Positions 4,090 through 62,102 of a DNA stretch of 64,000 nt are shown here, piece by piece. The position numbers and the translations under genes were made by a program. This DNA comes from Candidatus Saccharimonadales bacterium (GTDB taxonomy: Bacteria; Patescibacteriota; Saccharimonadia; Saccharimonadales; JAGPDM01): the NCBI GenBank assembly GCA_044227985.1, contig JBGAVT010000002.1, forward strand, positions 19,452 through 83,451. The letters run 5' to 3'. Each line of letters starts with the position of its first letter. The first letter of the stretch is position 1. The notes beneath the pieces are model-generated. The model ran no database searches. It worked only from the letters and a program-made list of their open reading frames with translations, and had not been told where the DNA came from.

Positions 4090-4959
4090 ATGAAACAACA
4101 TATCAAAACAGCCGTCTGGGCACATCAGGAAAATAACTACGTACCAGTTGCTTTGAAGTTGCCGATTCTTACAGCCTTTTCTTTTGTTATCGCGCTTTGT
4201 CTTTTCGCTAGTTATCTACAAACATATCGTCCGGAAGTGCTTGGTACGACTACATTACTAAATCAACAGAACATCGTCGAAGAATTAAATATCAGTAGAC
4301 AGCAGCATGGTGTTGGACAGTTACAACCAAATGAGCAGCTAAACCGAGCAGCTCAAGCTAAAGCTAGTGATATGACCAGTCATAAATACTGGTCGCACGT
4401 TGCACCTGATGGAACAACGCCATGGCAATGGATAGACAAAACAGGTTACAGCTACAGTGTTGCTGGTGAAAACCTCGCACGGGGCTTCTCGACAACTCCA
4501 GGAGTTATGACAGCATGGGAAGAGTCGCCAACCCATCGTGACAATATGCTCGACGGTCGCTATCGTGACGTCGGAGTCGCTGTTGTTCCAAGTGGCGTGT
4601 ATGGACACGAAAGTACGATCGTTGTTCTTTTGCTTGCGAAACCATCCGGGCTAATAGCAGCTGGAAGCAACGAACAATCTGTGCTTGCTGGGCGCACGCA
4701 AGCACCTGAAATGCCTCACAAAGCTATTTTTGGTCAATTTGCAGCCATTTCGATTCGGTATATGCAACCATTCTCGCTCGTAGCCCTCGGTATGCTATTA
4801 ATGTTGGCTGTCCTGGGTACTTTAGCTCATATTCGATTTATTGCCGTTCCACGGGAGCTACGCAAGTCATGGCGGGCTCATCAAGGTTTATATACAGCGG
4901 TCATTGCCTGTATTTCGATTTTTGCCACGATACTACTATTTGGTGGCGCACAAATCTAG
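4090..4959 (+). CDS. membrane-anchored CAP/SCP (YkwD-like) domain protein
   Basis: N-terminal TM helix. CAP-domain motifs are present (LNRAAQAKASDMTSHKYWSHVAPDG...AGENLARGF...AWEESPTHRDNML...YRDVGVAV). Hydrophobic helices at the C-terminus. Confidence 0.65.
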   Translation: MKQHIKTAVWAHQENNYVPVALKLPILTAFSFVIALCLFASYLQTYRPEVLGTTTLLNQQNIVEELNISRQQHGVGQLQPNEQLNRAAQAKASDMTSHKYWSHVAPDGTTPWQWIDKTGYSYSVAGENLARGFSTTPGVMTAWEESPTHRDNMLDGRYRDVGVAVVPSGVYGHESTIVVLLLAKPSGLIAAGSNEQSVLAGRTQAPEMPHKAIFGQFAAISIRYMQPFSLVALGMLLMLAVLGTLAHIRFIAVPRELRKSWRAHQGLYTAVIACISIFATILLFGGAQI

Positions 4960-24314: not shown

Positions 24315-26552
24315 ATGGCTCGAGATTTAGATTTTCTGCATAAGGACATCACAATGGATGCTGGTGAAAGAGCAATCTGTGCGATTAGGGTTAGCCATTT
24401 GTTACAGGAAATTAAGGCAACTGGGTATGAAACTTCAGGTTTCGACATTCAATATTTTCCAGATACCGGAATAGACAACCCTAGGCAAAGAATAAATAGG
24501 TTCCATCCATCTGTAGAGGATCAAAATGGTAGGAACTGGCAGTTCTGTGCCATTCCTGACGGTGAAGCTACGGCGATTGGTATTGCTTATGGTAATGCAG
24601 TGGTACCAATATTTTCTCTGTTAACCAAAGAATCTTCTGACCCTACACAGAGAAATTGCGTTACATTGATGCCTATACCAAGACTAATTGATGACGGAGC
24701 TACTAAAACTGTTGATGATTGGCTAGAAAATATGGTTACGACTAATGATGATGAACGCAAGCCGCTTTACGAACTTGAAGACGGCGCAGTTGTTCCGTCA
24801 GCTCAAATTGTTGAAAGTATCCTACATTTAGTCGGCAGACCTTCGGCATTGGAAGACCATCCCGAGGGATACGTGTTGACCGCACCTCAACTCTTTGGAG
24901 TGCTAAATTTGCAACATTACATCGATGTCACAGGTCTTACGGAAGAAATTATAAAATCTGAAGAATCCGTTGCGCTCTCAAAAACAGAAAAACTCGAGCC
25001 AGTCGAAGAGGCACTATCTGTAGCCTCAGCTATAGTCGAAGCTGAAAGAAAGCTGACTGAACAAGCAGAGCCTAAAGGATGGGTCATCAAGAGTAGCTTG
25101 GGGGAACGCGGACGTCGTCTTGAATCAACTGCTGTAACTACTCTAAATTTTGTACCCGGGGAAGGCCTAGCGATTACTACAACTGTATCTCCGAAACATA
25201 GTGATAAATATTCTTATGGTGTGGCAACCATCAGAGATGGCAAGGTTGTGTATCTTGATAATAGAAGAGAAGTAAGCGAGGAACAAATAAAAAGACTTCA
25301 GCTAGAAGTGGCAGAAAGAATTGGCGCTCAAACAAAAGTGGTTTTGCCTAAACCAACTGAACGTGAATACAATGGTGAAGAATCTTTGAATGCTGAAGTA
25401 GAAAAAGCTAATGTTGTTGATTATAGTGAAGCTGATATAACTCAGGGCAAACAACTATTAGTAGATAGGCTTGAATTATTAGCGGCTAGTAGTGGAAGAG
25501 GTAGCAACTGGCAACGTGCAGTCCAAGTTTCAGAAGAAATAGATCAATTCATTCGAGGTTTTGAGCTGCTCCCTAATACTTTATTCGATCTAAATGGTTG
25601 CGATAGTGAAAAAATGAAAAGTTCAGTATTATTAGAATCTCTTCTGCAAGAATACCCACCGAGACATAGATTTACTGGAACTTTTAATCTCGAAGAGAGC
25701 TCTCTGATATATGATTTGAACTATGCCTTAAGTGCCGATATCGCCTTAGTGGAAACAGAAACAGCCAGATTTGGTTTTATGCCTAACTTTGCCACTCTCC
25801 ATCTATTAAATGCAGGTGCGCAAAAAGTCCAAGCAACTAATAAAAAAAACGAAAATAGGTTATTAGTTATAGCCAATGATGGTAGAGCAGCTGCTAGAAA
25901 AGGTGGCCCAGTAATTTTATATACAGAGGAAAACAACAGGTTGTACAACATACATGATGGTGTAGACGAGATAAGGTTCTATTGGGTAAGAGGTAAAAAT
26001 TCAGGATTTAATCCTCGTTCAGTCGGGAATCTTCCCGGTAATACAATTGCGCACTTCGTGAAAACAGAATCAAATGGCAAAAACGCCAGGGTTATGGCGA
26101 TAAATGGACAGACAGTAAGAATCGAAGATAGCTCCTATGATGAAAAAAAACGAAAACTTGTAAAAGATCGCTCTAGTCGGAAAAGAAAAAAAGCTCTCGT
26201 TTCAGAAACCGATAAGATAATAGATGATATGCGTGAAGTCTGCTCTCGTGTAGGTATAAATTTTGGTTACATTAGTGCTGAATATGCAACAGAGCTGCCC
26301 CACACTTACACTAAGACAGGGCTAAACAAAAGAGCGATTGGAGAATTGGTAAAATATGCGACGATGTTTGGCGGAGGTGGGGCTGGGGTAACTGCAGCAG
26401 CTCATCTTGCAGTTGAATCTCCATTCATAAACCCAGTAATTGCTGGTCTATTTGGCGGAGGCGTAGCGTTAAAAAAATCACGAATTCTAAAAAGAAGTAT
26501 TGATGCTTTTAGAGCAAAAAAAGCACTCAAAACAGCCGATTCCGACAAATAA
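24315..26552 (+). CDS. orphan 745-aa protein with C-terminal glycine-zipper membrane anchor
   Basis: Long uninterrupted ORF with no signal peptide and no motif I recognise. The K/R-rich stretch KKRKLVKDRSSRKRKK is followed near the C-terminus by FGGGGAGVTAAAHLAV...VIAGLFGGGVAL and a basic tail. Confidence 0.7.
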   Translation: MARDLDFLHKDITMDAGERAICAIRVSHLLQEIKATGYETSGFDIQYFPDTGIDNPRQRINRFHPSVEDQNGRNWQFCAIPDGEATAIGIAYGNAVVPIFSLLTKESSDPTQRNCVTLMPIPRLIDDGATKTVDDWLENMVTTNDDERKPLYELEDGAVVPSAQIVESILHLVGRPSALEDHPEGYVLTAPQLFGVLNLQHYIDVTGLTEEIIKSEESVALSKTEKLEPVEEALSVASAIVEAERKLTEQAEPKGWVIKSSLGERGRRLESTAVTTLNFVPGEGLAITTTVSPKHSDKYSYGVATIRDGKVVYLDNRREVSEEQIKRLQLEVAERIGAQTKVVLPKPTEREYNGEESLNAEVEKANVVDYSEADITQGKQLLVDRLELLAASSGRGSNWQRAVQVSEEIDQFIRGFELLPNTLFDLNGCDSEKMKSSVLLESLLQEYPPRHRFTGTFNLEESSLIYDLNYALSADIALVETETARFGFMPNFATLHLLNAGAQKVQATNKKNENRLLVIANDGRAAARKGGPVILYTEENNRLYNIHDGVDEIRFYWVRGKNSGFNPRSVGNLPGNTIAHFVKTESNGKNARVMAINGQTVRIEDSSYDEKKRKLVKDRSSRKRKKALVSETDKIIDDMREVCSRVGINFGYISAEYATELPHTYTKTGLNKRAIGELVKYATMFGGGGAGVTAAAHLAVESPFINPVIAGLFGGGVALKKSRILKRSIDAFRAKKALKTADSDK

Positions 26553-26670: not shown

Positions 26671-27108
26671 ATGGCAAAGAAGAAAAAGAAGATATCGGCA
26701 CGAGTAAAGTTCCGCGTACCAGCTGGTAATGCGACCCCTGGGCCACCTGTTGGTTCAACACTCGGTCAGCATGGACTTCAAGCGCAAGATTTTATCAGTC
26801 AATACAACGACCGAACCTCAGACCTAAAAGGTCAGGGCGATGTAACAGTAAAAATGAACATTTTTGATGATCGCACCTTTACCTTTACAACTAGTGGTAT
26901 TCCTGCAGATGATTTAATTCGTAAAGCCCTCAATATCAAAAAAGGTAGCGGAGTTCCTCAGAAGGATAAAGTTGGCAAGCTTACACAAGCACAACTTACT
27001 GAAATCGCTGAGATGAAAATGAGTCAGACTAATGCTAATGATATCGAAGCAACAAAGGCCCAAATCGCTGGAACTGCTCGAAGCATGGGTGTTGAAGTAG
27101 AAAAATAA
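26671..27108 (+). CDS. rplK: 50S ribosomal protein L11
   Basis: KFRVPAGNATPGPPVGSTLGQHGLQAQDFISQYN is the canonical L11 N-terminal domain. Confidence 0.95.
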   Translation: MAKKKKKISARVKFRVPAGNATPGPPVGSTLGQHGLQAQDFISQYNDRTSDLKGQGDVTVKMNIFDDRTFTFTTSGIPADDLIRKALNIKKGSGVPQKDKVGKLTQAQLTEIAEMKMSQTNANDIEATKAQIAGTARSMGVEVEK

Positions 27109-27116
27109 TTTTAATA

Positions 27117-27156
27117 TGTGGGAGATGTTTAAAACATCGATTGCACCACAGGAAGG
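27117..27156 (+). promoter_or_regulatory. candidate L1-binding mRNA structure in front of rplA
   Basis: Outer stem TGTGG (27117-27121) / CCACA (27146-27150). It encloses the GA / GATTGCA internal loop and a 6-bp hairpin GATGTT-TAA-AACATC. The structure abuts the SD GGAAGG (27151-27156). The GUGGGAG...CACCAC arrangement recalls the 23S L1-stalk site. Confidence 0.35.
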
Positions 27157-27165
27157 TCATATATA

Positions 27166-28191
27166 ATGGCAAAGAAAGCAGATTTACTAGAAGAAGCCAA
27201 GAAGCTTAACCTAGAAGTAACAGAAAAGAATACAATTGCCGAGATAACCGAAGCGATTAAGAATGCAGAGCAACCAGAAGAAACGTCTGAGACTCCAAGT
27301 GTTTCTAAGGAAACCAAGGAAACTGAAGAAAAGAAGTTCACAAAAGCCGGTAAACACAGTAAGAAAGCTGCTGAAGAAGCTGAAGCTGAAGAAGCTAAAG
27401 AAGAGCGCAAAGCTAAGATTGCTGCTGGTGAACTTGATCCTTCAACTAACGAAGATGGTGATGTTGTTTCTAGTAAAGGCCCAGTGCCGATTCCTCGTGC
27501 ACGTGTTGAACGTCGTAGTAAGCGCTACCAAGCTACTGTTACTAATATCGACAGAGATAAGACGTATGATGTTGATCAAGCAGTCCAAATGGTACAAAAA
27601 GCTAGTACTGTCAAATTTGACGCTAGTATCGAGCTACACATGAACTTAAATATTAATCCGAAGCACGCCGATCAAAACATCCGTGGAAGCATGGTTCTTC
27701 CACATGGTAATGGTAAGACGCAACGCGTTGCAGTCTTCGCAGCTGAAGACCTTCACAAAGACGCTAAAGCAGCTGGTGCGGACGCTGTCTATGCAGATGA
27801 ACTGCTTGATAAGCTAAAAGCCGAAGAAATTGATTTCGACGTACTCGTTTCTACGCCTGAAAATATGGCTAAGCTTGGTCGCTATGCGAAACTGCTCGGT
27901 CCAAAAGGCCTTATGCCTAATCCAAAGAGCGGTACCGTGACTAAGGACGTTGCTAAGGCCGTTTCAGAAGCTAAAGCTGGTCGAGTTGAATACAGAGTCG
28001 ATAAGGCTGGAATCATGCACCTCGCTGTCGGTAAAGTTAGTTTTAAAAACGACCAGTTGATGCAAAATATCGATGCTGTTATAAAGGTTGTTAAAGATGC
28101 TCGACCTGCAAGCGTTAAATCAGATTACATCAAGTCTATCTCAATCAATAGCACTATGGGGCCAGGCGTTAAAATAAATCTCTCAGCGTAA
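27166..28191 (+). CDS. rplA: 50S ribosomal protein L1 with an N-terminal extension of about 115 aa
   Basis: The canonical L1 part starts near [26 protein letters not shown]...[23 protein letters not shown]. Residues 1 to about 115 are an extra HeH-like motif plus an acidic, Lys-rich linker. Confidence 0.9.
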
Positions 28192-29284: not shown

Positions 29285-29779
29285 TTAATTTCGCTTATAG
29301 TTCATAAATGTATAGCTATGCCGATTTTTTTCGTCTGAATTAAAGTGTTCATTATAAACTTGCTTCCAAGCAGTCTTATCAAAATCTGAAAAAAAGATAT
29401 CACCGTTATATTCAGCGTCTATGATAGTTAGATAGATGAGCTGAGCGTATGGCAAAAAAAGATCAAATACTTTACTTCCTCCGATAACAAAGATCTCTTC
29501 AGTTTCAAATCTGTATTTTGCTATGGCTTGTTCGAAAGTCATAAAATCAACCAGCTCACCACTACTCGGATTAGGCTTATGAGTAATAACAACATGATGA
29601 CGATTAGGTAATGGTTCAGATAGTTCATCGAACGTGGTTCGCCCCATGATTATCGTGTGGTGCTCTGTTAATTCGCGGTACCGTTTTAGGTCAGCTTTCT
29701 GTGACTTGCCCCAAGGAAGACCACCATTTCTACTGCCCATCACGCCATTTTTATCGGTTGCGACTACAAAGCTAAACAT
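29285..29779 (-). CDS. folA: dihydrofolate reductase
   Basis: From the internal ATG (MFSFVVATDKNGVMG). GGLPWGKSQKADLKRYRELT, IIMGRTTFDEL, LPNRHHVVIT, IFVIGGSKVF and GDIFF match the DHFR blocks. Confidence 0.85.
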   Translation of the reverse strand: MFSFVVATDKNGVMGSRNGGLPWGKSQKADLKRYRELTEHHTIIMGRTTFDELSEPLPNRHHVVITHKPNPSSGELVDFMTFEQAIAKYRFETEEIFVIGGSKVFDLFLPYAQLIYLTIIDAEYNGDIFFSDFDKTAWKQVYNEHFNSDEKNRHSYTFMNYKRN

Positions 29780-29894
29780 TATTGAAAGTATAGCAAGATA
29801 CAACAACTATCAAAATGTAGCACACAAGAAAACACTAGCGACTTGCATGAGTATAGCTGTTATATTTAGGGGAATAAATAATGGAGTGAATGAA

Positions 29895-30605
29895 ATGAAA
29901 ACACCGATGAAAAAATCAACGAAGTACATGCTAATAGGTTTATTTGAAATAATACTGCTAATAGTTGCTATTGGAGCTTTTTACTTGATAACTAAAAATA
30001 ACCAATCCCAAGATTCCGAAAAAGCAGAAACGGTTGTGCGGAAACCAAGTCAAAAAGACGAATCGAAGCCTAAAACCTACACTTCGAAGTACGAGATGCT
30101 AAGTTTCAAATATGACCCGAAACGCGTCACTTTAAAGGATGAATACGGACCAGGCCTCGAAGAAGGCCTAAACTCCGAAAGATTAACTGCAACCAGTGGA
30201 AACTACGTTCTCGAACTACAGAATGGAATGAATGGGTTAGGCGGTTTCGATCCGTGTAGTGGTGATGAAGCAACTTGCGAAGTCGTTGAAACCTTTCCGC
30301 TTACCCTTTTCAATAAACCTAAGACTTTAGACTTACGCAAGGAAACTAAGGTCGGCGACTGTTTAAGCGAAGAAGAATGTAAAACTTCCAAAACAACTAG
30401 CTATAACTTTGTTATTGGTAGCGACCGTAGTATAGCCACATACTTCTACAATTCGAAAAATATTATCTCAACAGATATGAATACACGCTACATCAATCTT
30501 ATTACCTTGTACTTTAAAGAGGGCGTCGATATTAATCCAGCCACCGTAAAAGATGACCCTAACTTTCAAGCACTACTTGAAGTTATAAGTTCGCTACATT
30601 ACTAG
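29895..30605 (+). CDS. hypothetical N-terminally anchored exported protein
   Basis: The ATG at 29895 is preceded by GGAG. MKTPMKKSTKYMLIGLFEIILLIVAIGAFYLI is a signal-anchor. The track's upstream extension overlaps folA antisense and is rejected. Confidence 0.5.
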   Translation: MKTPMKKSTKYMLIGLFEIILLIVAIGAFYLITKNNQSQDSEKAETVVRKPSQKDESKPKTYTSKYEMLSFKYDPKRVTLKDEYGPGLEEGLNSERLTATSGNYVLELQNGMNGLGGFDPCSGDEATCEVVETFPLTLFNKPKTLDLRKETKVGDCLSEEECKTSKTTSYNFVIGSDRSIATYFYNSKNIISTDMNTRYINLITLYFKEGVDINPATVKDDPNFQALLEVISSLHY

Positions 30606-30660
30606 ATTTCAATAATCTGCTTTAAGAATCGATTAAAATCACCTATACTAGACACTATCC

Positions 30661-31395
30661 GTGGTGGGAGACAAAAACGAGGTAAAAGTGGATCAAAATC
30701 AGATGCAATTCGGTGTATATAGTAATATGCAGATTCGTGCTGCTATCAAACATAGCCATATTGTTGCCCATCCTTTTAACGATGAACAAGTAAATGGTAG
30801 TAGTTATGACGTGACATTAGGTCACTGGTATTATTCGACCGAGATGGACGGCGACCGTAGTCTCTATAACCCTTTCGACCAAACCGACGTAAACCGCTAC
30901 TTCAGTGGCCCGCATCACTCATCTGCCCATAATCTATGGTGCGCCGAAAATGGACGTTCTCTTATGCCAGGGATTCCTGACGACCACCCAATCATTGTAT
31001 TACGACCTGGGGAACGAATTTTGGCTCACACCCATGAGTTTATTGGAATCAAAGCCCCCGGTACAAGTACTATGCAAGCACGAAGTACTTGGGGTAGAAA
31101 CGGTGTAGCCGTTTGCCTAGATGCCGGATGGGGTGATCCTGGTTACATAAACCGTTGGACAATGGAAATATATAACATGAATAAACGCGATAGCGTAGTA
31201 CTTCCTGTTGGTGAACGAATCGCCCAAGTTGTTTTTTACCACACCGGCCCGGTAGAAGGAGAATATTCCAGTTTGAGCGGAAAATATCAACAAAGCCCAG
31301 AGTCTGACTTATCAGAAATTGTCCGAAACTGGAGACCAGAATCAATGTTGCCACAGGCATTCAAGGACGAACGTAAGAAACCACAAAAGATATAG
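30661..31395 (+). CDS. dcd: dCTP deaminase / dUTPase-superfamily enzyme
   Basis: MQIRAAIKHSHIVAHPFNDEQVNGSSYDVTLG and ARSTWGRNGVAV...DAGWGDPGYINRWTMEIYN...GERIAQVVF match the Dcd blocks. The start (GTG 30661 or ATG 30703) is uncertain. Confidence 0.7.
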   Translation: MVGDKNEVKVDQNQMQFGVYSNMQIRAAIKHSHIVAHPFNDEQVNGSSYDVTLGHWYYSTEMDGDRSLYNPFDQTDVNRYFSGPHHSSAHNLWCAENGRSLMPGIPDDHPIIVLRPGERILAHTHEFIGIKAPGTSTMQARSTWGRNGVAVCLDAGWGDPGYINRWTMEIYNMNKRDSVVLPVGERIAQVVFYHTGPVEGEYSSLSGKYQQSPESDLSEIVRNWRPESMLPQAFKDERKKPQKI

Positions 31396-31404
31396 GAGAC
31401 AACG

Positions 31405-33627
31405 ATGGCAAAGGGCAAATACATTGTAATCGAAGGCGCAGATGGTAGCGGTAAAACTACCATGGCGAGAAATATTCAGGCCTTACTCTTTCAAAAACTA
31501 GGTATCAAAGCAGTTATTCTGCGCGAGCCAGGCAGTACGGAATTTGCCGACAAAATCCGCGAAGTTCTAAAAAGTACGACTAGTCGTAGCCCTGAGGCAA
31601 ACGTCTTAGCTTTTAATGCCGCACGTGCCGACACAATGCGTGAAGTTGCGAAGCATATCGAAAACGGTGGCTGGGTTATTGCTGATCGAAGCTGGATTTC
31701 CACTGTGGTGTATCAAGGTTACGGCGAAGGGCTTGATATCGACAATCTGCGACGAATCAGCCAGTACGCGGCTGCAGCTCAAGCAGACTTGACTGTAGTC
31801 TTAGATGCACCAGTTGATGTTCGACGAGCTCGTAACCACAAACGTGGTGGTAGTGATTATTTCGAGAACCAATCAGATGACTTCCATGAACGAGTGCGTC
31901 AAGGCTATTTGGAGGAAGCTGAATTTCTTGGTTTACCATTAATTAATGCTAACGATAGTGAATCTAGTATCGCTACCCAGCTATGGGGTATGGTTGAAGA
32001 GATTACTGATATTAAAAGTAAAACTAAAAAGACTAAACGTAACCCATTTGTTGAAAAGACAGAACATGGCATGCAGCCGACTGAGCTCGGCAATCAATGG
32101 CTTGGTAATGTGCTGAGTAATCCAAATAAAAATGCCTATGTTTTCAATAACAATCTCAGCCCAATCACCATCGCAGCAGCAATGGCACGACTCAGTCGTC
32201 GTGCCGACGATATGCGAGTAACAATTCTTGACGAATTCAGCCAGATCGAAGGCAAGGACGATTCATTGCTGCGTCGGGTGATTACAGCTTACGGTGATGA
32301 TTCAGTCCAACAATTAACAGGGATCCATGCTGTCGTAGAGAATGCTAGCAACCTTTTGACGAAGAAACTTGAGTGGGGAAGACTGGCTGCCTATCTTGAA
32401 CAATCAACCCGATATATCTATTACGACCGTAAAACACGAGAAGGTAAGTACCGCTATTATACGCCAACAGAGTTCGATGAATCGACCACTAAAATTTATA
32501 ATGAAACGCTTGACCAGATCTTCGATCTTTACTCTATAGTTGTACACGAATTAACAGATTTTATTACAGCTCGAGACGAAACCCCTAAAGAAGAACGAGA
32601 TATCGCCTGGAAGGGGGCGATTCGCGCTCAGGCCTGCGACGTGGCACGAGCGATGCTTCCTGTGGCTACAACATCTACTGTTGGGCTGTATGCAAGTGGG
32701 CAGGCCTATGAAAGCTTAGTCATGCACTTGATGAGTGATGAGCTAGAGGAATCACGTGCAACCGGAGAAGACCTCCTTGAAGCTGGTCGCACCGTAGCAG
32801 CAACATTCCTAGAGCGAGCTGATAAACCAAGTCGTGGTGGAGCAATGCAAGCATATAGAGCCAATACAAGAAATGCCGTCGCAGAAATCACCGAGAAACT
32901 GCTGTCTAATACTGGCTATAGCGACGATAAACGAGACGTGCATTTAGTCAGTACATCCATGCGTAACGAACTGGATGTCGTACCGTATATCCTTTACGAA
33001 GCCTCCGAACTATCACTTGATGAGTTACAAAAAGAAGTAGCCGATTGGAGCTATGATAAAAAACTAGAAGTCTTTAATGCCTACATTGGAGAGAGATTAA
33101 ACCGACGACACAAGCCAGGGCGGGCATTTGAGCATATCGAGTACAACTGGGATTTAATGTGTGACTACGGTATTTTCCGCGATTTACAGCGTCATCGCAT
33201 GGTTGAAGGTCTTCAGTGGCAGAAGCTTACACCACGTTACGGCTATGAAACACCAAAATTAATTGAAGATGCTAACTTAACCGAAGCATACGACCAAGCT
33301 TTTGAGCTGAGCCAGCATCTTTTTAGTCGGCTTCAAGCTTTAGGCTTATATGAACAAGCGCAGTATGCAACGTTAATGGGTCACCGTATGCGGTGGAAAA
33401 TTTCTTTCAATGCTCGTGAAGCTTTTCATTTCATGGAACTACGAACAGCCCCACAAGGCCACCCAGCATATCGAGCACTTGTGAAAACCATGCATGAGCA
33501 GCTTTCAGAAATCCACCCACTGACAGGGGGCGCTATGAAGTTTGTTAATCAAGACGAAGACGCCGCACTAACTCGTCTCGCAGCCGAACGCTACACTCAG
33601 TTTAAGCTCAACCAACTAGGCCAGTGA
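31405..33627 (+). CDS. fusion protein: thymidylate kinase plus tandem ThyX-like (flavin-dependent thymidylate synthase) domains
   Basis: The N-terminal ~200 aa is Tmk (YIVIEGADGSGKTT, VIADRSWISTVVYQG, LID RRARNHKRGG). Two ThyX-like repeats follow. Repeat A has LEWGRLAAYLEQSTRY with the RHR triad lost. Repeat B has FRDLQRHRMVEGLQWQKLTPRY and WKISFNAREAFHFMELRTAPQGH. Confidence 0.8.
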   Translation: MAKGKYIVIEGADGSGKTTMARNIQALLFQKLGIKAVILREPGSTEFADKIREVLKSTTSRSPEANVLAFNAARADTMREVAKHIENGGWVIADRSWISTVVYQGYGEGLDIDNLRRISQYAAAAQADLTVVLDAPVDVRRARNHKRGGSDYFENQSDDFHERVRQGYLEEAEFLGLPLINANDSESSIATQLWGMVEEITDIKSKTKKTKRNPFVEKTEHGMQPTELGNQWLGNVLSNPNKNAYVFNNNLSPITIAAAMARLSRRADDMRVTILDEFSQIEGKDDSLLRRVITAYGDDSVQQLTGIHAVVENASNLLTKKLEWGRLAAYLEQSTRYIYYDRKTREGKYRYYTPTEFDESTTKIYNETLDQIFDLYSIVVHELTDFITARDETPKEERDIAWKGAIRAQACDVARAMLPVATTSTVGLYASGQAYESLVMHLMSDELEESRATGEDLLEAGRTVAATFLERADKPSRGGAMQAYRANTRNAVAEITEKLLSNTGYSDDKRDVHLVSTSMRNELDVVPYILYEASELSLDELQKEVADWSYDKKLEVFNAYIGERLNRRHKPGRAFEHIEYNWDLMCDYGIFRDLQRHRMVEGLQWQKLTPRYGYETPKLIEDANLTEAYDQAFELSQHLFSRLQALGLYEQAQYATLMGHRMRWKISFNAREAFHFMELRTAPQGHPAYRALVKTMHEQLSEIHPLTGGAMKFVNQDEDAALTRLAAERYTQFKLNQLGQ

Positions 33628-42850: not shown

Positions 42851-43381
42851 ATGGCGATTACTCGAAAGAAAAAGGAAGAAATCATTTCTGGCGTAGCCGA
42901 TATTTTGGCGCAGTCAAAGATGACCGTCGTCGCAAACTACTCTGGTTTGACCGTTGCAGAAATGCAAACACTTCGACGTGCAGCACGAGCAGAAAATGTC
43001 GTTATCAAAGTTGCAAAAAACCGACTCGTTAAGCGAGCATTTGCAGCTGACAATAAGTTAAAAGACGTTGACAGCTCCATGCTAAAAGGTCAGTTAGCAG
43101 TTGCAGTAGGTCTAGATGACGAAGTTGCTCCAGCCCAAGTTTTGGCGCAATTTGCTAAAGAACATCCACAGCTCGAGCTAATTGGCGGCGTTAACGCTGA
43201 CGGTGAAGCTTTTGACGGTGCTCAGGTCAAGCAATTGAGCGAGCTACCAAGCAAAGACGTACTACGCGGCCAAGTTGTTGGAACGATTGCAGCACCACTC
43301 AGTGGTTTTGTTTCTGTTCTAGCTGGCAACATTCGCGGCTTTAACAACGTGCTTAACGCACGAAAAGACGCAATTTCATAA
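42851..43381 (+). CDS. rplJ: 50S ribosomal protein L10
   Basis: KKEEIISGVADILAQSKMTVVANYSGLTVAEMQTLRRAARAENVVIKVAKNRL is a typical L10 sequence. Confidence 0.92.
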   Translation: MAITRKKKEEIISGVADILAQSKMTVVANYSGLTVAEMQTLRRAARAENVVIKVAKNRLVKRAFAADNKLKDVDSSMLKGQLAVAVGLDDEVAPAQVLAQFAKEHPQLELIGGVNADGEAFDGAQVKQLSELPSKDVLRGQVVGTIAAPLSGFVSVLAGNIRGFNNVLNARKDAIS

Positions 43382-61025: not shown

Positions 61026-62102
61026 CTATTCCAAATCAGTTAGCAGGTACGCTTTATTCAACATCTCCTGATATTCATCTTCTACATTAGAATCCCAAAC
61101 AATCCCACTGCCCACACCAAGCTTGAGCTGATTACCTGTTTTTTCCAAGGTTCGAATTAGTATTGACGAATTTAAACTACCATCGGCAAGAATCTGAAAA
61201 GCACAACCAGTGTAGAAACCTCTGGGATTTGGCTCTAACTGTACAATGCTCTTGATTGCTTCTGATTTTGGGCATCCAGTGATTGAGCCTCCAGGAAAGC
61301 AGGATACAAGCGCTCGAATCGGAGAGATATTTTCTTTCAGTTTTCCCGATATTATTGAAGAGGTATGGGTTATCCTTTCTAGATGTTGTACCTTGCGATC
61401 ATTTTCAACGACAACAGTGCCCGCATCGCAGACTTCTGATAAATCATTGCGAAGGAGGTCAGTTATCATTGCTAGCTCAGCTTCTTCTTTTCGGCTTGCT
61501 AATAGCTCTGCATCAAAGCCAACGACTCTGGCCGTACCTTTTATCGGCTCTGTCTTGACTGTTCTATGTGCGTCTATACACAAAAACATTTCAGGACTTG
61601 CACTGATTATCTGTTGTTCACCCAGATCGAATAGGCATGTGTGCGCTCGTGGGAATTCATGTGCAATATAACTAAACCAATCCACAACACTATAGTTTGA
61701 CTCGGCAGTCACTCTATCTGTTAAATTAATCTGGTAAATCTGCCCCTTCTTGATGAGTCGAATAATTTCCGCAAAGCGATTATTAAATATTGCCTGATTT
61801 GGAAAGTTCAGATTGGAGACCGTCGGTTTATGTGAAATATATTTATTTTTTTTATCAGATTGAGCATAAGAAAAAACATTAATTTTCTTATACGATAAAT
61901 TCATGTTGACCACTGATCCCCAACTATTTGAGACATCGAAAGGTATAACCCCAGCAACAATATTTCCCTTGCTATGTTCTGTTTCCACGAAATCTATTAA
62001 ATAATCTTTGTTTAGCCCGATGTAGCTCGAAATAGGTTGCGAAAAATTACTACCATTCCATAAACCAGATTTGCCAGAAAAACTTACATCGCCTAAAGCC
62101 AT
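61026..62102 (-). CDS. pabB: chorismate-binding enzyme (aminodeoxychorismate synthase component I-like)
   Basis: FPGGSITGCPKSEAIKSIVQLEPNPRGFYTGCAF and GVGSGIVWDS match TrpE/PabB C-terminal blocks. At 358 aa it is short, which fits PabB better than TrpE. Confidence 0.65.
   Translation of the reverse strand: MALGDVSFSGKSGLWNGSNFSQPISSYIGLNKDYLIDFVETEHSKGNIVAGVIPFDVSNSWGSVVNMNLSYKKINVFSYAQSDKKNKYISHKPTVSNLNFPNQAIFNNRFAEIIRLIKKGQIYQINLTDRVTAESNYSVVDWFSYIAHEFPRAHTCLFDLGEQQIISASPEMFLCIDAHRTVKTEPIKGTARVVGFDAELLASRKEEAELAMITDLLRNDLSEVCDAGTVVVENDRKVQHLERITHTSSIISGKLKENISPIRALVSCFPGGSITGCPKSEAIKSIVQLEPNPRGFYTGCAFQILADGSLNSSILIRTLEKTGNQLKLGVGSGIVWDSNVEDEYQEMLNKAYLLTDLE

Follow-up and report, generated by a model that had tools for sequence, protein, structure and literature searches.

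Introduction

Thymidylate kinase (Tmk) and the flavin-dependent thymidylate synthase (FDTS) ThyX are textbook enzymes, and their sequences are abundant in public databases. The gene studied here, tmk-thyX, joins both in a single polypeptide and in this sense represents no novel type of system. It is located in a stretch of 64,000 nucleotides (nt) from Candidatus Saccharimonadales bacterium (GenBank assembly GCA_044227985.1, contig JBGAVT010000002.1, positions 19,452 to 83,451 of the forward strand), hereafter referred to as the window, and encodes a Tmk domain followed by two unequal ThyX-like halves, termed A and B. All coordinates are those of the window.

ThyX is absent from humans and is investigated as an antibacterial target for this reason; its reaction yields tetrahydrofolate. 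The structural and mechanistic work on ThyX that we found in the literature was all performed on the short homotetrameric form. Each active site of canonical ThyX draws on three subunits, of which one provides the RHR triad and the uracil-binding Arg, another the Ser and Arg contacts to the flavin, and the last the Ser-x-Arg-Tyr substrate loop. In the enzyme of Mycobacterium tuberculosis (Mtb), the active site is composed of residues from three subunits, with subunit A contributing the RHR triad and R199, subunit B S71 and R190, and subunit C R87, S105, R107, and the lid residue Y108 (PMC6514825). Likewise, in ThyX of Paramecium bursaria Chlorella virus 1 (PBCV-1), Gln75 and Arg182 are provided by one monomer, and Ser88 and Gln89 by another (PMC3498832). 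The canonical homotetramers (Protein Data Bank (PDB) entries 1O26; 2AF6/3GWC; 2CFA/4FZB; Helicobacter pylori 3AH5) share the fold and the Pfam family with both halves of the fusion, and their ligand-contacting residues are matched once these two halves are taken together. In contrast to canonical ThyX, the fusion contains two diverged copies per chain, neither of which holds the full RHRx7-8S motif, as well as an attached Tmk, and two active sites are predicted for the fusion instead of four.

An unfused long form of ThyX with a length of 510-560 amino acids (aa) has the A-then-B order and the reciprocal residue pattern in common with the fusion, at 30-53% identity over both halves, but lacks the N-terminal Tmk. 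The chlamydial ThyX of approximately 530 aa, which has been studied biochemically in C. trachomatis, may be of this long-form type. Bacterial Tmk (E. coli 4TMK, Aquifex 2PBR, Thermus 5X7J), which is a homodimer, shares the P-loop, the DR-x motif, the LID arginines, and the fold with the fusion, whereas the latter carries 540 further residues comprising the linker and ThyX.

Fused enzymes of the thymidylate pathway are known from protozoa and plants, where dihydrofolate reductase (DHFR) and thymidylate synthase form the bifunctional DHFR-TS, for which electrostatic channelling is documented. Moreover, a tmk-dut fusion has been described in baculovirus (PMC4895240). In both cases, two steps of dTTP synthesis are likewise combined in one polypeptide, and the partners are operon or pathway neighbours elsewhere. 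However, the partner enzymes differ from those of the fusion described here, and DHFR-TS relies on ThyA chemistry and on channelling, the latter of which is not indicated for the present fusion. Our literature search yielded no paper on ThyX in Saccharibacteria, TM7, or the candidate phyla radiation (CPR), on a Tmk-ThyX fusion, on tandem or duplicated ThyX, or on the architecture of chlamydial ThyX.

The tmk-thyX fusion is encoded by one continuous reading frame

The fusion gene (31405..33627, plus strand) starts with ATG and comprises 740 codons and a stop codon. The open reading frame (ORF) contains no internal stop and codes for a product of 740 aa. A ribosome-binding site (AGGAG), which overlaps the stop codon of the upstream gene dcd (both within 31393..31404, plus strand), is positioned 7 nt 5′ of the ATG. 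A scan of the region from 28.9 to 34.4 kb for promoters and terminators returned a site count not above that of shuffled sequence.

A first-pass annotation, made from the letters of the sequence alone, had described one 740-codon ORF that joins a complete Tmk to two ThyX-like repeats. This description is borne out by the ORF and by the Pfam matches, and the motifs quoted in its support were all found in place. Profile searches performed domain by domain placed both Thymidylate_kin and Thy1 above their cut-offs, with the C-terminal part passing Thy1. Two further public contigs encode a protein identical to this one over all 740 aa, and the cluster at 99% identity comprises nine member sequences. 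The 120 best database matches all show the complete architecture of Tmk plus Thy1 in full-length proteins of 736-805 aa, and more than 100 full-length homologues with 50-99% identity were found in Saccharibacteria/Patescibacteria, the named source being Candidatus Saccharibacteria, Saccharimonadales, or Patescibacteria. Given the identical protein on two independent contigs and the 120 full-length matches, there is no sign of a missed stop codon or a frameshift between tmk and thyX. Thus, the fusion of Tmk with a tandem ThyX of unequal halves is confirmed as genuine.

In the NCBI and IMG databases these proteins are nearly always labelled just 'dTMP kinase', with a single record named 'putative thymidylate synthase'; thousands of Saccharibacteria fusion proteins bear the former label only. 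Consequently, metabolic reconstructions of these reduced, host-dependent bacteria may miss de novo thymidylate synthesis and record it as lacking by mistake. Together with the proposed reciprocal division of the active site between the halves described below, we regard this mis-annotation as the most valuable part of the present analysis.

The N-terminal domain has the hallmarks of bacterial thymidylate kinase

The dTMP kinase domain comprises aa 1-200 (31405..32004, plus strand) and was assigned by family profiles, fold, and residues. The Pfam profile Thymidylate_kin (PF02223) matched aa 9-186 with 122.7 bits (cut-off 27), the NCBIfam equivalog TIGR00041 scored 131.4 bits (cut-off 83.25), and E. 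coli Tmk (4tmk) was matched with an E-value of 1.4e-27. The domain contains the P-loop GADGSGKT at aa 11-18 (G11-ADGS-G16-K17-T18), a DRS motif with Ser in the third place at aa 94-96 (D94-R95-S96), and the LID VRRARNHKRGGSDY at aa 139-152 with the arginines R143 and R147; the AAR arginine is present as R74. Among 44 homologues, E10, G11, G16, K17, E41, P42, R52, R74, D94, R95, Q104, R143, and R147 are invariant, and S96 is the only residue of the Tmk motifs (P-loop, DR, R74, and the LID arginines) that is not. When the full-length model was compared with solved Tmk structures using Foldseek, the template modelling (TM) score normalized to the target was mostly 0.84-0.92 at a root-mean-square deviation of 1.6-2.3 Å, with TM scores of 0.90-0.92 for Aquifex Tmk. 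Judging from its residues, the N-terminal 200 aa represent a bacterial thymidylate kinase with intact catalytic residues, and kinase activity is to be expected. The 64 kb window contains no second tmk gene.

The C-terminal part consists of two ThyX-like halves

Downstream of a poorly conserved linker (aa 201-235; 32005..32109, plus strand), the protein continues with half A (aa ~236-500; 32110..32904, plus strand) and half B (aa ~501-740; 32905..33624, plus strand). With the whole protein as query, the Pfam family Thy1 (PF02511) was found in two stretches with 116.8 bits (cut-off 24.8). Scanned alone, half A matched profile positions 9-160 with aa ~254-438 (E 2.2e-14, 54.1 bits), and half B profile positions 40-190 with aa 560-706 (E 1e-19, 71.5 bits). 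We also considered a single ThyX domain interrupted by a large insertion, which is ruled out because each half alone covers most of the Thy1 profile; hence, the protein contains two ThyX-like domains.

A single-sequence search of the PDB sequences with the fusion protein matched no solved ThyX, and narrow profiles yielded Tmk or marginal ThyX matches, such that broader profiles were needed for the mapping of ThyX residues. The half-A profile matched Mtb ThyX (3gwc) with an E-value of 1.5e-11, and the half-B profile matched the enzymes of H. pylori, PBCV-1, Mtb, and Thermotoga maritima with E-values of 1.4e-5 to 1.3e-3.

The AlphaFold model of the full-length protein has a mean predicted local distance difference test (pLDDT) score of 84.7 and a predicted TM score (pTM) of 0.65. 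Since the Foldseek matches of this model were all Tmk, the ThyX part (aa 215-740) was modelled separately, giving a pLDDT of 85.5 and a pTM of 0.85. The top 50 PDB matches of the latter model are without exception ThyX/FDTS chains from M. tuberculosis, T. maritima, and PBCV-1, with a probability of 1.0. The TM scores are at most 0.70 to the target and at most 0.31 to the query, with each match covering approximately 220 of the 526 residues. As the pTM drops from 0.85 for the separately modelled ThyX part to 0.65 when Tmk is included, the two halves can be read as one rigid body, i.e., an intramolecular pseudo-dimer to which Tmk would be attached by a flexible linker. Structure prediction, as proposed in the first-pass annotation, thus recovers both the Tmk and the ThyX fold in single-chain models, with Tmk on a linker of low confidence (pLDDT <50 at aa 204-209).

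Aligning the profiles of the two halves with each other by hhalign gave an E-value of 0.018 over 35 columns. A recent tandem duplication is ruled out by this low similarity, and by the A/B order and asymmetry that are common across phyla. Within Saccharibacteria, the mean column identity is 78% for half A and likewise 78% for half B, with invariant residues scattered through both halves. Half A is therefore not decaying, since it is under the same constraint as half B and retains invariant residues.

Active-site residues are reciprocally retained in halves A and B

The residues corresponding to the ligand-contacting positions of Mtb and T. maritima ThyX were assigned in both halves, and their retention was followed clade by clade in 134 representatives (one for each 50%-identity cluster) that were aligned with L-INS-i, the three main clades having 25, 40, and 23 members. 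The position of Mtb S71 is occupied by S300 in half A and by R573 in half B. The triad R95-H96-R97 (R78-H79-R80 in T. maritima) reads W324-G325-R326 in half A and R596-H597-R598 in half B. Mtb Q103 (T. maritima E86) corresponds to E332 in half A and to a variable position in half B, S105 (S88) to S334 in half A and, after a three-residue insertion, to T609 in half B, R107 (R90) to R336 and R611, and Y108 (Y91) to Y337 and Y612. Mtb R172 (R147) is matched by R415 in half A and by Q653 in half B, R190 (R165) by Q433 in half A and R671 in half B, and R199 (R174) by M443, in a variable column, in half A and R680 in half B.

In the three main clades, S300, R326, E332, S334, R336, Y337, and R415 of half A are invariant. 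The remaining positions of this half are variable, with W, R, or D at the R95 equivalent, G, S, A, or P at that of H96, Q or R at that of R190, and L, R, M, or A at that of R199. In half B, R573, E576, R592, R596-H597-R598, R671, H675, R680, and H686 are fully or almost fully conserved in the same clades, and R690 is kept in most members. The loop of half B varies across the 134 representatives, with T, S, G, or D at position 609, R at position 611 in 57 of them, and L, Y, or H at position 612.

The RHRx7-8S motif is complete in neither half and can be completed only by combining both. The half-A motif LEWGRLAAYLEQSTRY (WGR-x7-S-x-R-Y; aa 322-337, 32368..32415, plus strand) keeps the canonical RHRx7S spacing and the dUMP loop E-x-S-x-R-Y, and the half-B motif FRDLQRHRMVEGLQWQKLTPRY (RHR-x10-T-x-R-Y; aa 591-612, 33175..33240, plus strand) keeps the triad. 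The earlier claim that the RHR triad is lost from repeat A holds for R and H; the third Arg is kept. Similarly, repeat B does possess RHR and a Thr in place of the classical Ser, but the spacing is x10 rather than x7-8, owing to the insertion of three residues in the loop. An asymmetric, pseudo-dimeric ThyX, as first envisaged, fits the unequal halves, whereas the notion that A has lost what B keeps is too simple. The losses are instead reciprocal: half A strictly retains the substrate loop and a dUMP-side Arg, and half B the RHR triad and the Arg residues assigned to the flavin/uracil side.

Besides the three main clades, the census contains a small and distant clade of seven mostly long proteins ('clade25': P0134, P0135, P0139, P0143, P0158, P0185, and one more), of which P0143 is a Tmk fusion by Pfam. 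Here, conserved residues look degraded in both halves: several members lack S/R/Y of half A, and most lack R680 of half B. Fragments, misalignment, or true pseudo-enzymes could account for this pattern.

A putative split-site ThyX with two composite active sites

The protein is probably a bifunctional dTMP synthase/dTMP kinase that ends a dcd-tmk-thyX operon, with its ThyX part forming a split-site pseudo-tetramer with two composite sites. We infer the catalytic activities, the oligomeric state, and the two-site arrangement as follows. The operon would serve the pathway from dCTP through dUTP or dUMP to dTMP and further to dTDP, and the fusion fixes a 1:1 stoichiometry and the proximity of two consecutive steps. 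The C-terminal 505 aa would constitute a long-form flavin-dependent thymidylate synthase with two very diverged ThyX folds per chain, and two such chains, contributing two A-type and two B-type folds, would associate to the equivalent of the canonical homotetramer. Half B conserves the set of residues assigned to subunit A of the Mtb enzyme, and half A that of subunit C; half B would supply the flavin/uracil side, and half A the dUMP loop. In either symmetric arrangement, exactly two sites would be formed by the flavin side of a B-type fold and the loop of an A-type fold, and the other two positions would lack RHR and the uracil-binding Arg. Two complete sites instead of four are predicted because the halves keep complementary subsets of the residues of the three-subunit site. 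Half A would then be an indispensable donor of active-site residues and not a relic. If true, this arrangement offers a natural experiment on the contributions of the individual subunits and a case of subfunctionalisation within one polypeptide.

A more far-reaching version, which we find plausible though short of probable, holds that the split of the site is obligatory in the long-form ThyX: after an ancient duplication, half B would have become the holder of flavin and uracil and half A the donor of the dUMP loop, leaving a pseudo-tetramer with exactly two working sites. The form present in Saccharibacteria would then have captured Tmk, which has been kept despite its decay in sister loci. 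This would imply a second role of the kinase domain as a dimerisation clamp or as a dTMP/dTTP sensor.

Several points weigh against the proposed split-site enzyme. The pseudo-tetramer and the pairing of the A-type loop with the B-type flavin side are deduced from residue conservation and published subunit assignments rather than from geometry, and we found no biochemical data on any tandem ThyX in the literature. In the Foldseek search of the PDB, no chain spans both halves or represents a tandem ThyX. With 49.5 bits, the protein scores below the cut-off (87.9) of the NCBIfam ThyX equivalog TIGR02170. The Arg equivalent to Mtb R87 is absent from both halves (N316 in A, Y588 in B), and hence binding of the dUMP phosphate must differ somewhat from that in the canonical enzyme. 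Key residues of Tmk are lost in about half of the sister loci (see below), such that the fusion is apparently not kept for kinase activity alone. Finally, the loop L608-T609-P610-R611-Y612 of half B is conserved in Saccharibacteria, where 44 close homologues share L608, P610, and R611 without exception and Y612 almost without exception; in these bacteria, half B's own loop may contribute to the site.

Taken further, the last point leads to an alternative in which half A is purely structural and half B alone completes the sites by means of its T609-x-R611-Y612 loop. Half B does hold both RHR and Thr-x-Arg-Tyr, and half A lacks the R and H of the triad together with the equivalents of Mtb R190 and R199. 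We nevertheless consider this unlikely, because the half-B loop varies across the family at all three positions, whereas E-x-S-x-R-Y and R415 of half A are invariant in all three main clades. Likewise, it is half A that exhibits the canonical spacing and half B that carries the insertion, and the retention of exactly the ligand-contacting residues would be unexpected for a merely structural domain.

The fused Tmk is degenerate in many sister loci

In 16 of approximately 30 sister loci from Saccharibacteria, the fused Tmk, i.e., the N-terminal ~200 aa of the fusion ORF near locus position 4200, is of a degenerate type ('type 2'; L002-L004, L006, L007, L010, L011, L013-L016, L020, L022, L023, L027, and L029). 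In 11 of the 16, the P-loop Lys is followed by Gly; E41F and R52L occur in all of them, and D94N/G, R143L/M, and R147K in most. The protein of the window is of 'type 1' and keeps all catalytic residues. A standalone tmk gene is found in eight related loci. In seven of these (L002, L006, L009, L018, L019, L022, and L027) it lies 1-3 kb upstream, and in L024 it directly precedes the ThyX gene; type 2 is represented among the eight loci by L002, L006, L022, and L027. The retention of the fused Tmk where it is apparently catalytically dead suggests an additional structural or regulatory role.

It could be argued that this holds for the window protein as well, i.e., that its Tmk domain serves mainly as a dimerisation or a dTMP/dTTP-sensing regulatory module and that a standalone tmk located elsewhere carries out the phosphorylation. 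The frequency of type 2 among sister loci and the standalone genes in eight related loci speak for this possibility, and the homodimeric state of bacterial Tmk would suit a two-chain assembly. However, the domain studied here is of type 1, its catalytic residues are intact and invariant in close relatives, its score is far above the cut-off of the TIGR00041 equivalog, and the window holds no other tmk; we therefore give this explanation a low probability. The first-pass annotation had seen Tmk as covalently coupled to the preceding enzyme of the pathway. In terms of co-translation this is correct, while a structured channel between the two is unsupported, as the linker is of low confidence in the models.

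The product of the ThyX-like module is most likely dTMP

Some ThyX homologues in nucleoside-antibiotic pathways carry out other modifications or use other substrates. By analogy, the module might catalyze another flavin-dependent pyrimidine modification or act on a substrate other than dUMP, and thus not be the thymidylate synthase of the cell. Its strong divergence from solved ThyX structures, none of which is found with a single sequence, is compatible with this idea, as are the score below the TIGR02170 cut-off, the classical motif that neither half displays, and the PolB-type ThyX homologue 4p5a among the weak matches. It appears very improbable in view of the genomic context: in nearly every related locus, Tmk is fused or adjoining and dCTP deaminase is located in front, an order that makes sense only for dTMP as the product. 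Moreover, many phyla carry a member of the family as a single-copy gene of the housekeeping type, it is named FAD-dependent thymidylate synthase in databases, and no thyA is found among the window ORFs of at least 150 aa.

The tandem ThyX is older and more widespread than the Tmk fusion

When only the ThyX part was used as query in an exhaustive search of 50%-identity clusters, 3,445 clusters were matched at E≤1e-3, of which 615 reached E≤1e-30. Unfused proteins of 510-560 aa account for 99 of the 133 near-full-length representatives, and a Tmk with the standard P-loop is present in 17. The remaining 17 have an N-terminal extension of 100-270 aa without the standard P-loop, and eight of ten that were scanned proved to be Tmk fusions. 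Scanning one genome per GTDB species revealed at least 596 confirmed tandem-ThyX loci. The 80 best of these fall into a Saccharibacteria-type group with 48-66% identity and an unfused group with 39-44% identity from Acidimicrobiia and other Actinomycetota, Chloroflexota, Acidobacteriota, Gemmatimonadales, Rokubacteria, and Binatia. In each of these 80 loci, the half-A profile matches the first half and the half-B profile the second. Unfused members also exist in other CPR groups; NCBI and IMG records from Microgenomates, Woesebacteria, Sungbacteria, Acidimicrobiia, and others list them as either 'FAD-dependent thymidylate synthase' or 'thymidylate synthase ThyX'.

Two of the unfused loci (L044 and L049, 41-42% identity) stem from records titled uncultured Bifidobacteriaceae and stand beside many matches from Acidimicrobiia, which may reflect a binning or labelling error or lateral transfer.

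The tandem asymmetric ThyX is not peculiar to the Tmk fusion. It belongs to a large and old family that occurs in several phyla, mostly without Tmk; the double ThyX is older and wider in distribution than the fusion, and only the latter is largely a trait of Saccharibacteria. Because the A-then-B order holds in all 80 of the best loci, the data point to one ancient duplication of ThyX and a much later capture of Tmk.

Among the Saccharibacteria-type loci L002-L032, Tmk and both ThyX halves are encoded in one frame in 26 of the 29 that keep the 5′ part. In L028 (3877-6599) and L030 (3953-6566), tmk and the tandem thyX are separate, adjoining genes, which looks like a pre-fusion state. In L024 (3568-6581), a standalone tmk directly precedes a ThyX ORF with an N-terminal extension of 270 aa that does not score as Tmk. 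In both L028 and L024, dcd is located upstream of tmk. The series from dcd/tmk/thyX over dcd/tmk-thyX to a fusion with a decayed kinase provides an example of evolution from operon to fusion. These three loci are at the same time all that speaks for an assembly or sequencing artefact that merged separate tmk and thyX genes in the window, an explanation with a negligible chance given the identical protein on two other contigs, the nine sequences in the 99% cluster, the 120 full-length matches from many independent assemblies and sources, and the frame that continues across the junction in the 26 loci.

Genes in the vicinity of tmk-thyX

The gene dcd (30661..31395, plus strand; alternative ATG start at 30703), coding for a dCTP deaminase-like protein, ends 9 nt upstream of the fusion gene. 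Its product scores 112.8 bits with PF22769 (cut-off 27) and 88.1 bits with TIGR02274 (cut-off 92.8). The immediate vicinity of dcd, noted from the outset, is thus evident from the short gap and also from the related loci, in 26 of 29 of which dcd is likewise co-oriented and immediately upstream. At 244 aa from the GTG start, or 230 aa from the ATG at 30703, the protein is long for its family, and it may be either a monofunctional deaminase or a bifunctional deaminase-dUTPase.

The dihydrofolate reductase gene folA (29285..29806, minus strand; likely start ATG 29779) is oriented divergently and scores 154.2 bits with DHFR_1 (PF00186; cut-off 25). A divergent DHFR gene nearby had been correctly recognized; it does not adjoin dcd, as an ORF of 236 aa (29895..30605, plus strand) is located between the two. 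The product of this ORF matched no Pfam or NCBIfam family and contains one N-terminal hydrophobic segment, in keeping with a membrane-anchored protein; the ORF possibly starts the transcription unit of dcd.

The retention of folA alongside ThyX had been thought to call for an explanation of its own. It turned out to be ordinary, because folA rarely neighbours the fusion (within 5 kb in only two of approximately 30 related loci, i.e., a loose association with the module) and because organisms with ThyX continue to require a certain amount of DHFR for completing the synthesis or salvage of folate (PMC1971073). In addition, folA genes of CPR bacteria complement an E. coli folA deletion, and a role in folate exchange between host and symbiont has been proposed (PMC11974145).

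At 61 kb, a chorismate-binding protein of 358 aa (61026..62102, minus strand) had been assigned as PabB. Chorismate binding is supported and the PabB models are the best NCBIfam matches, but the score of 239 bits is far below their cut-off of 408 bits, with TrpE models scoring close behind. No other folate genes and no thyA or dut were detected among the window ORFs of at least 150 aa.

The window has a G+C content of approximately 40% and contains secE-nusG, rplK-rplA, and rplJ-rplL, in agreement with a Saccharibacteria/Patescibacteria origin. An ORF of 745 aa (24315-26552, plus strand) between nusG and rplK yielded no Pfam match at E≤1e-4. The genes rplK-rplA (26671-28191) and rplJ(-rplL) (42851-43381), which are usually contiguous, are separated here by approximately 14.7 kb. 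The stretch between rplA and rplJ comprises an inositol-monophosphatase-family gene, folA, the dcd/tmk-thyX module, and an isochorismatase-family gene, as well as leuA and genes for a flavodoxin, a two-subunit 2-oxoacid:ferredoxin oxidoreductase, and a threonine dehydratase.

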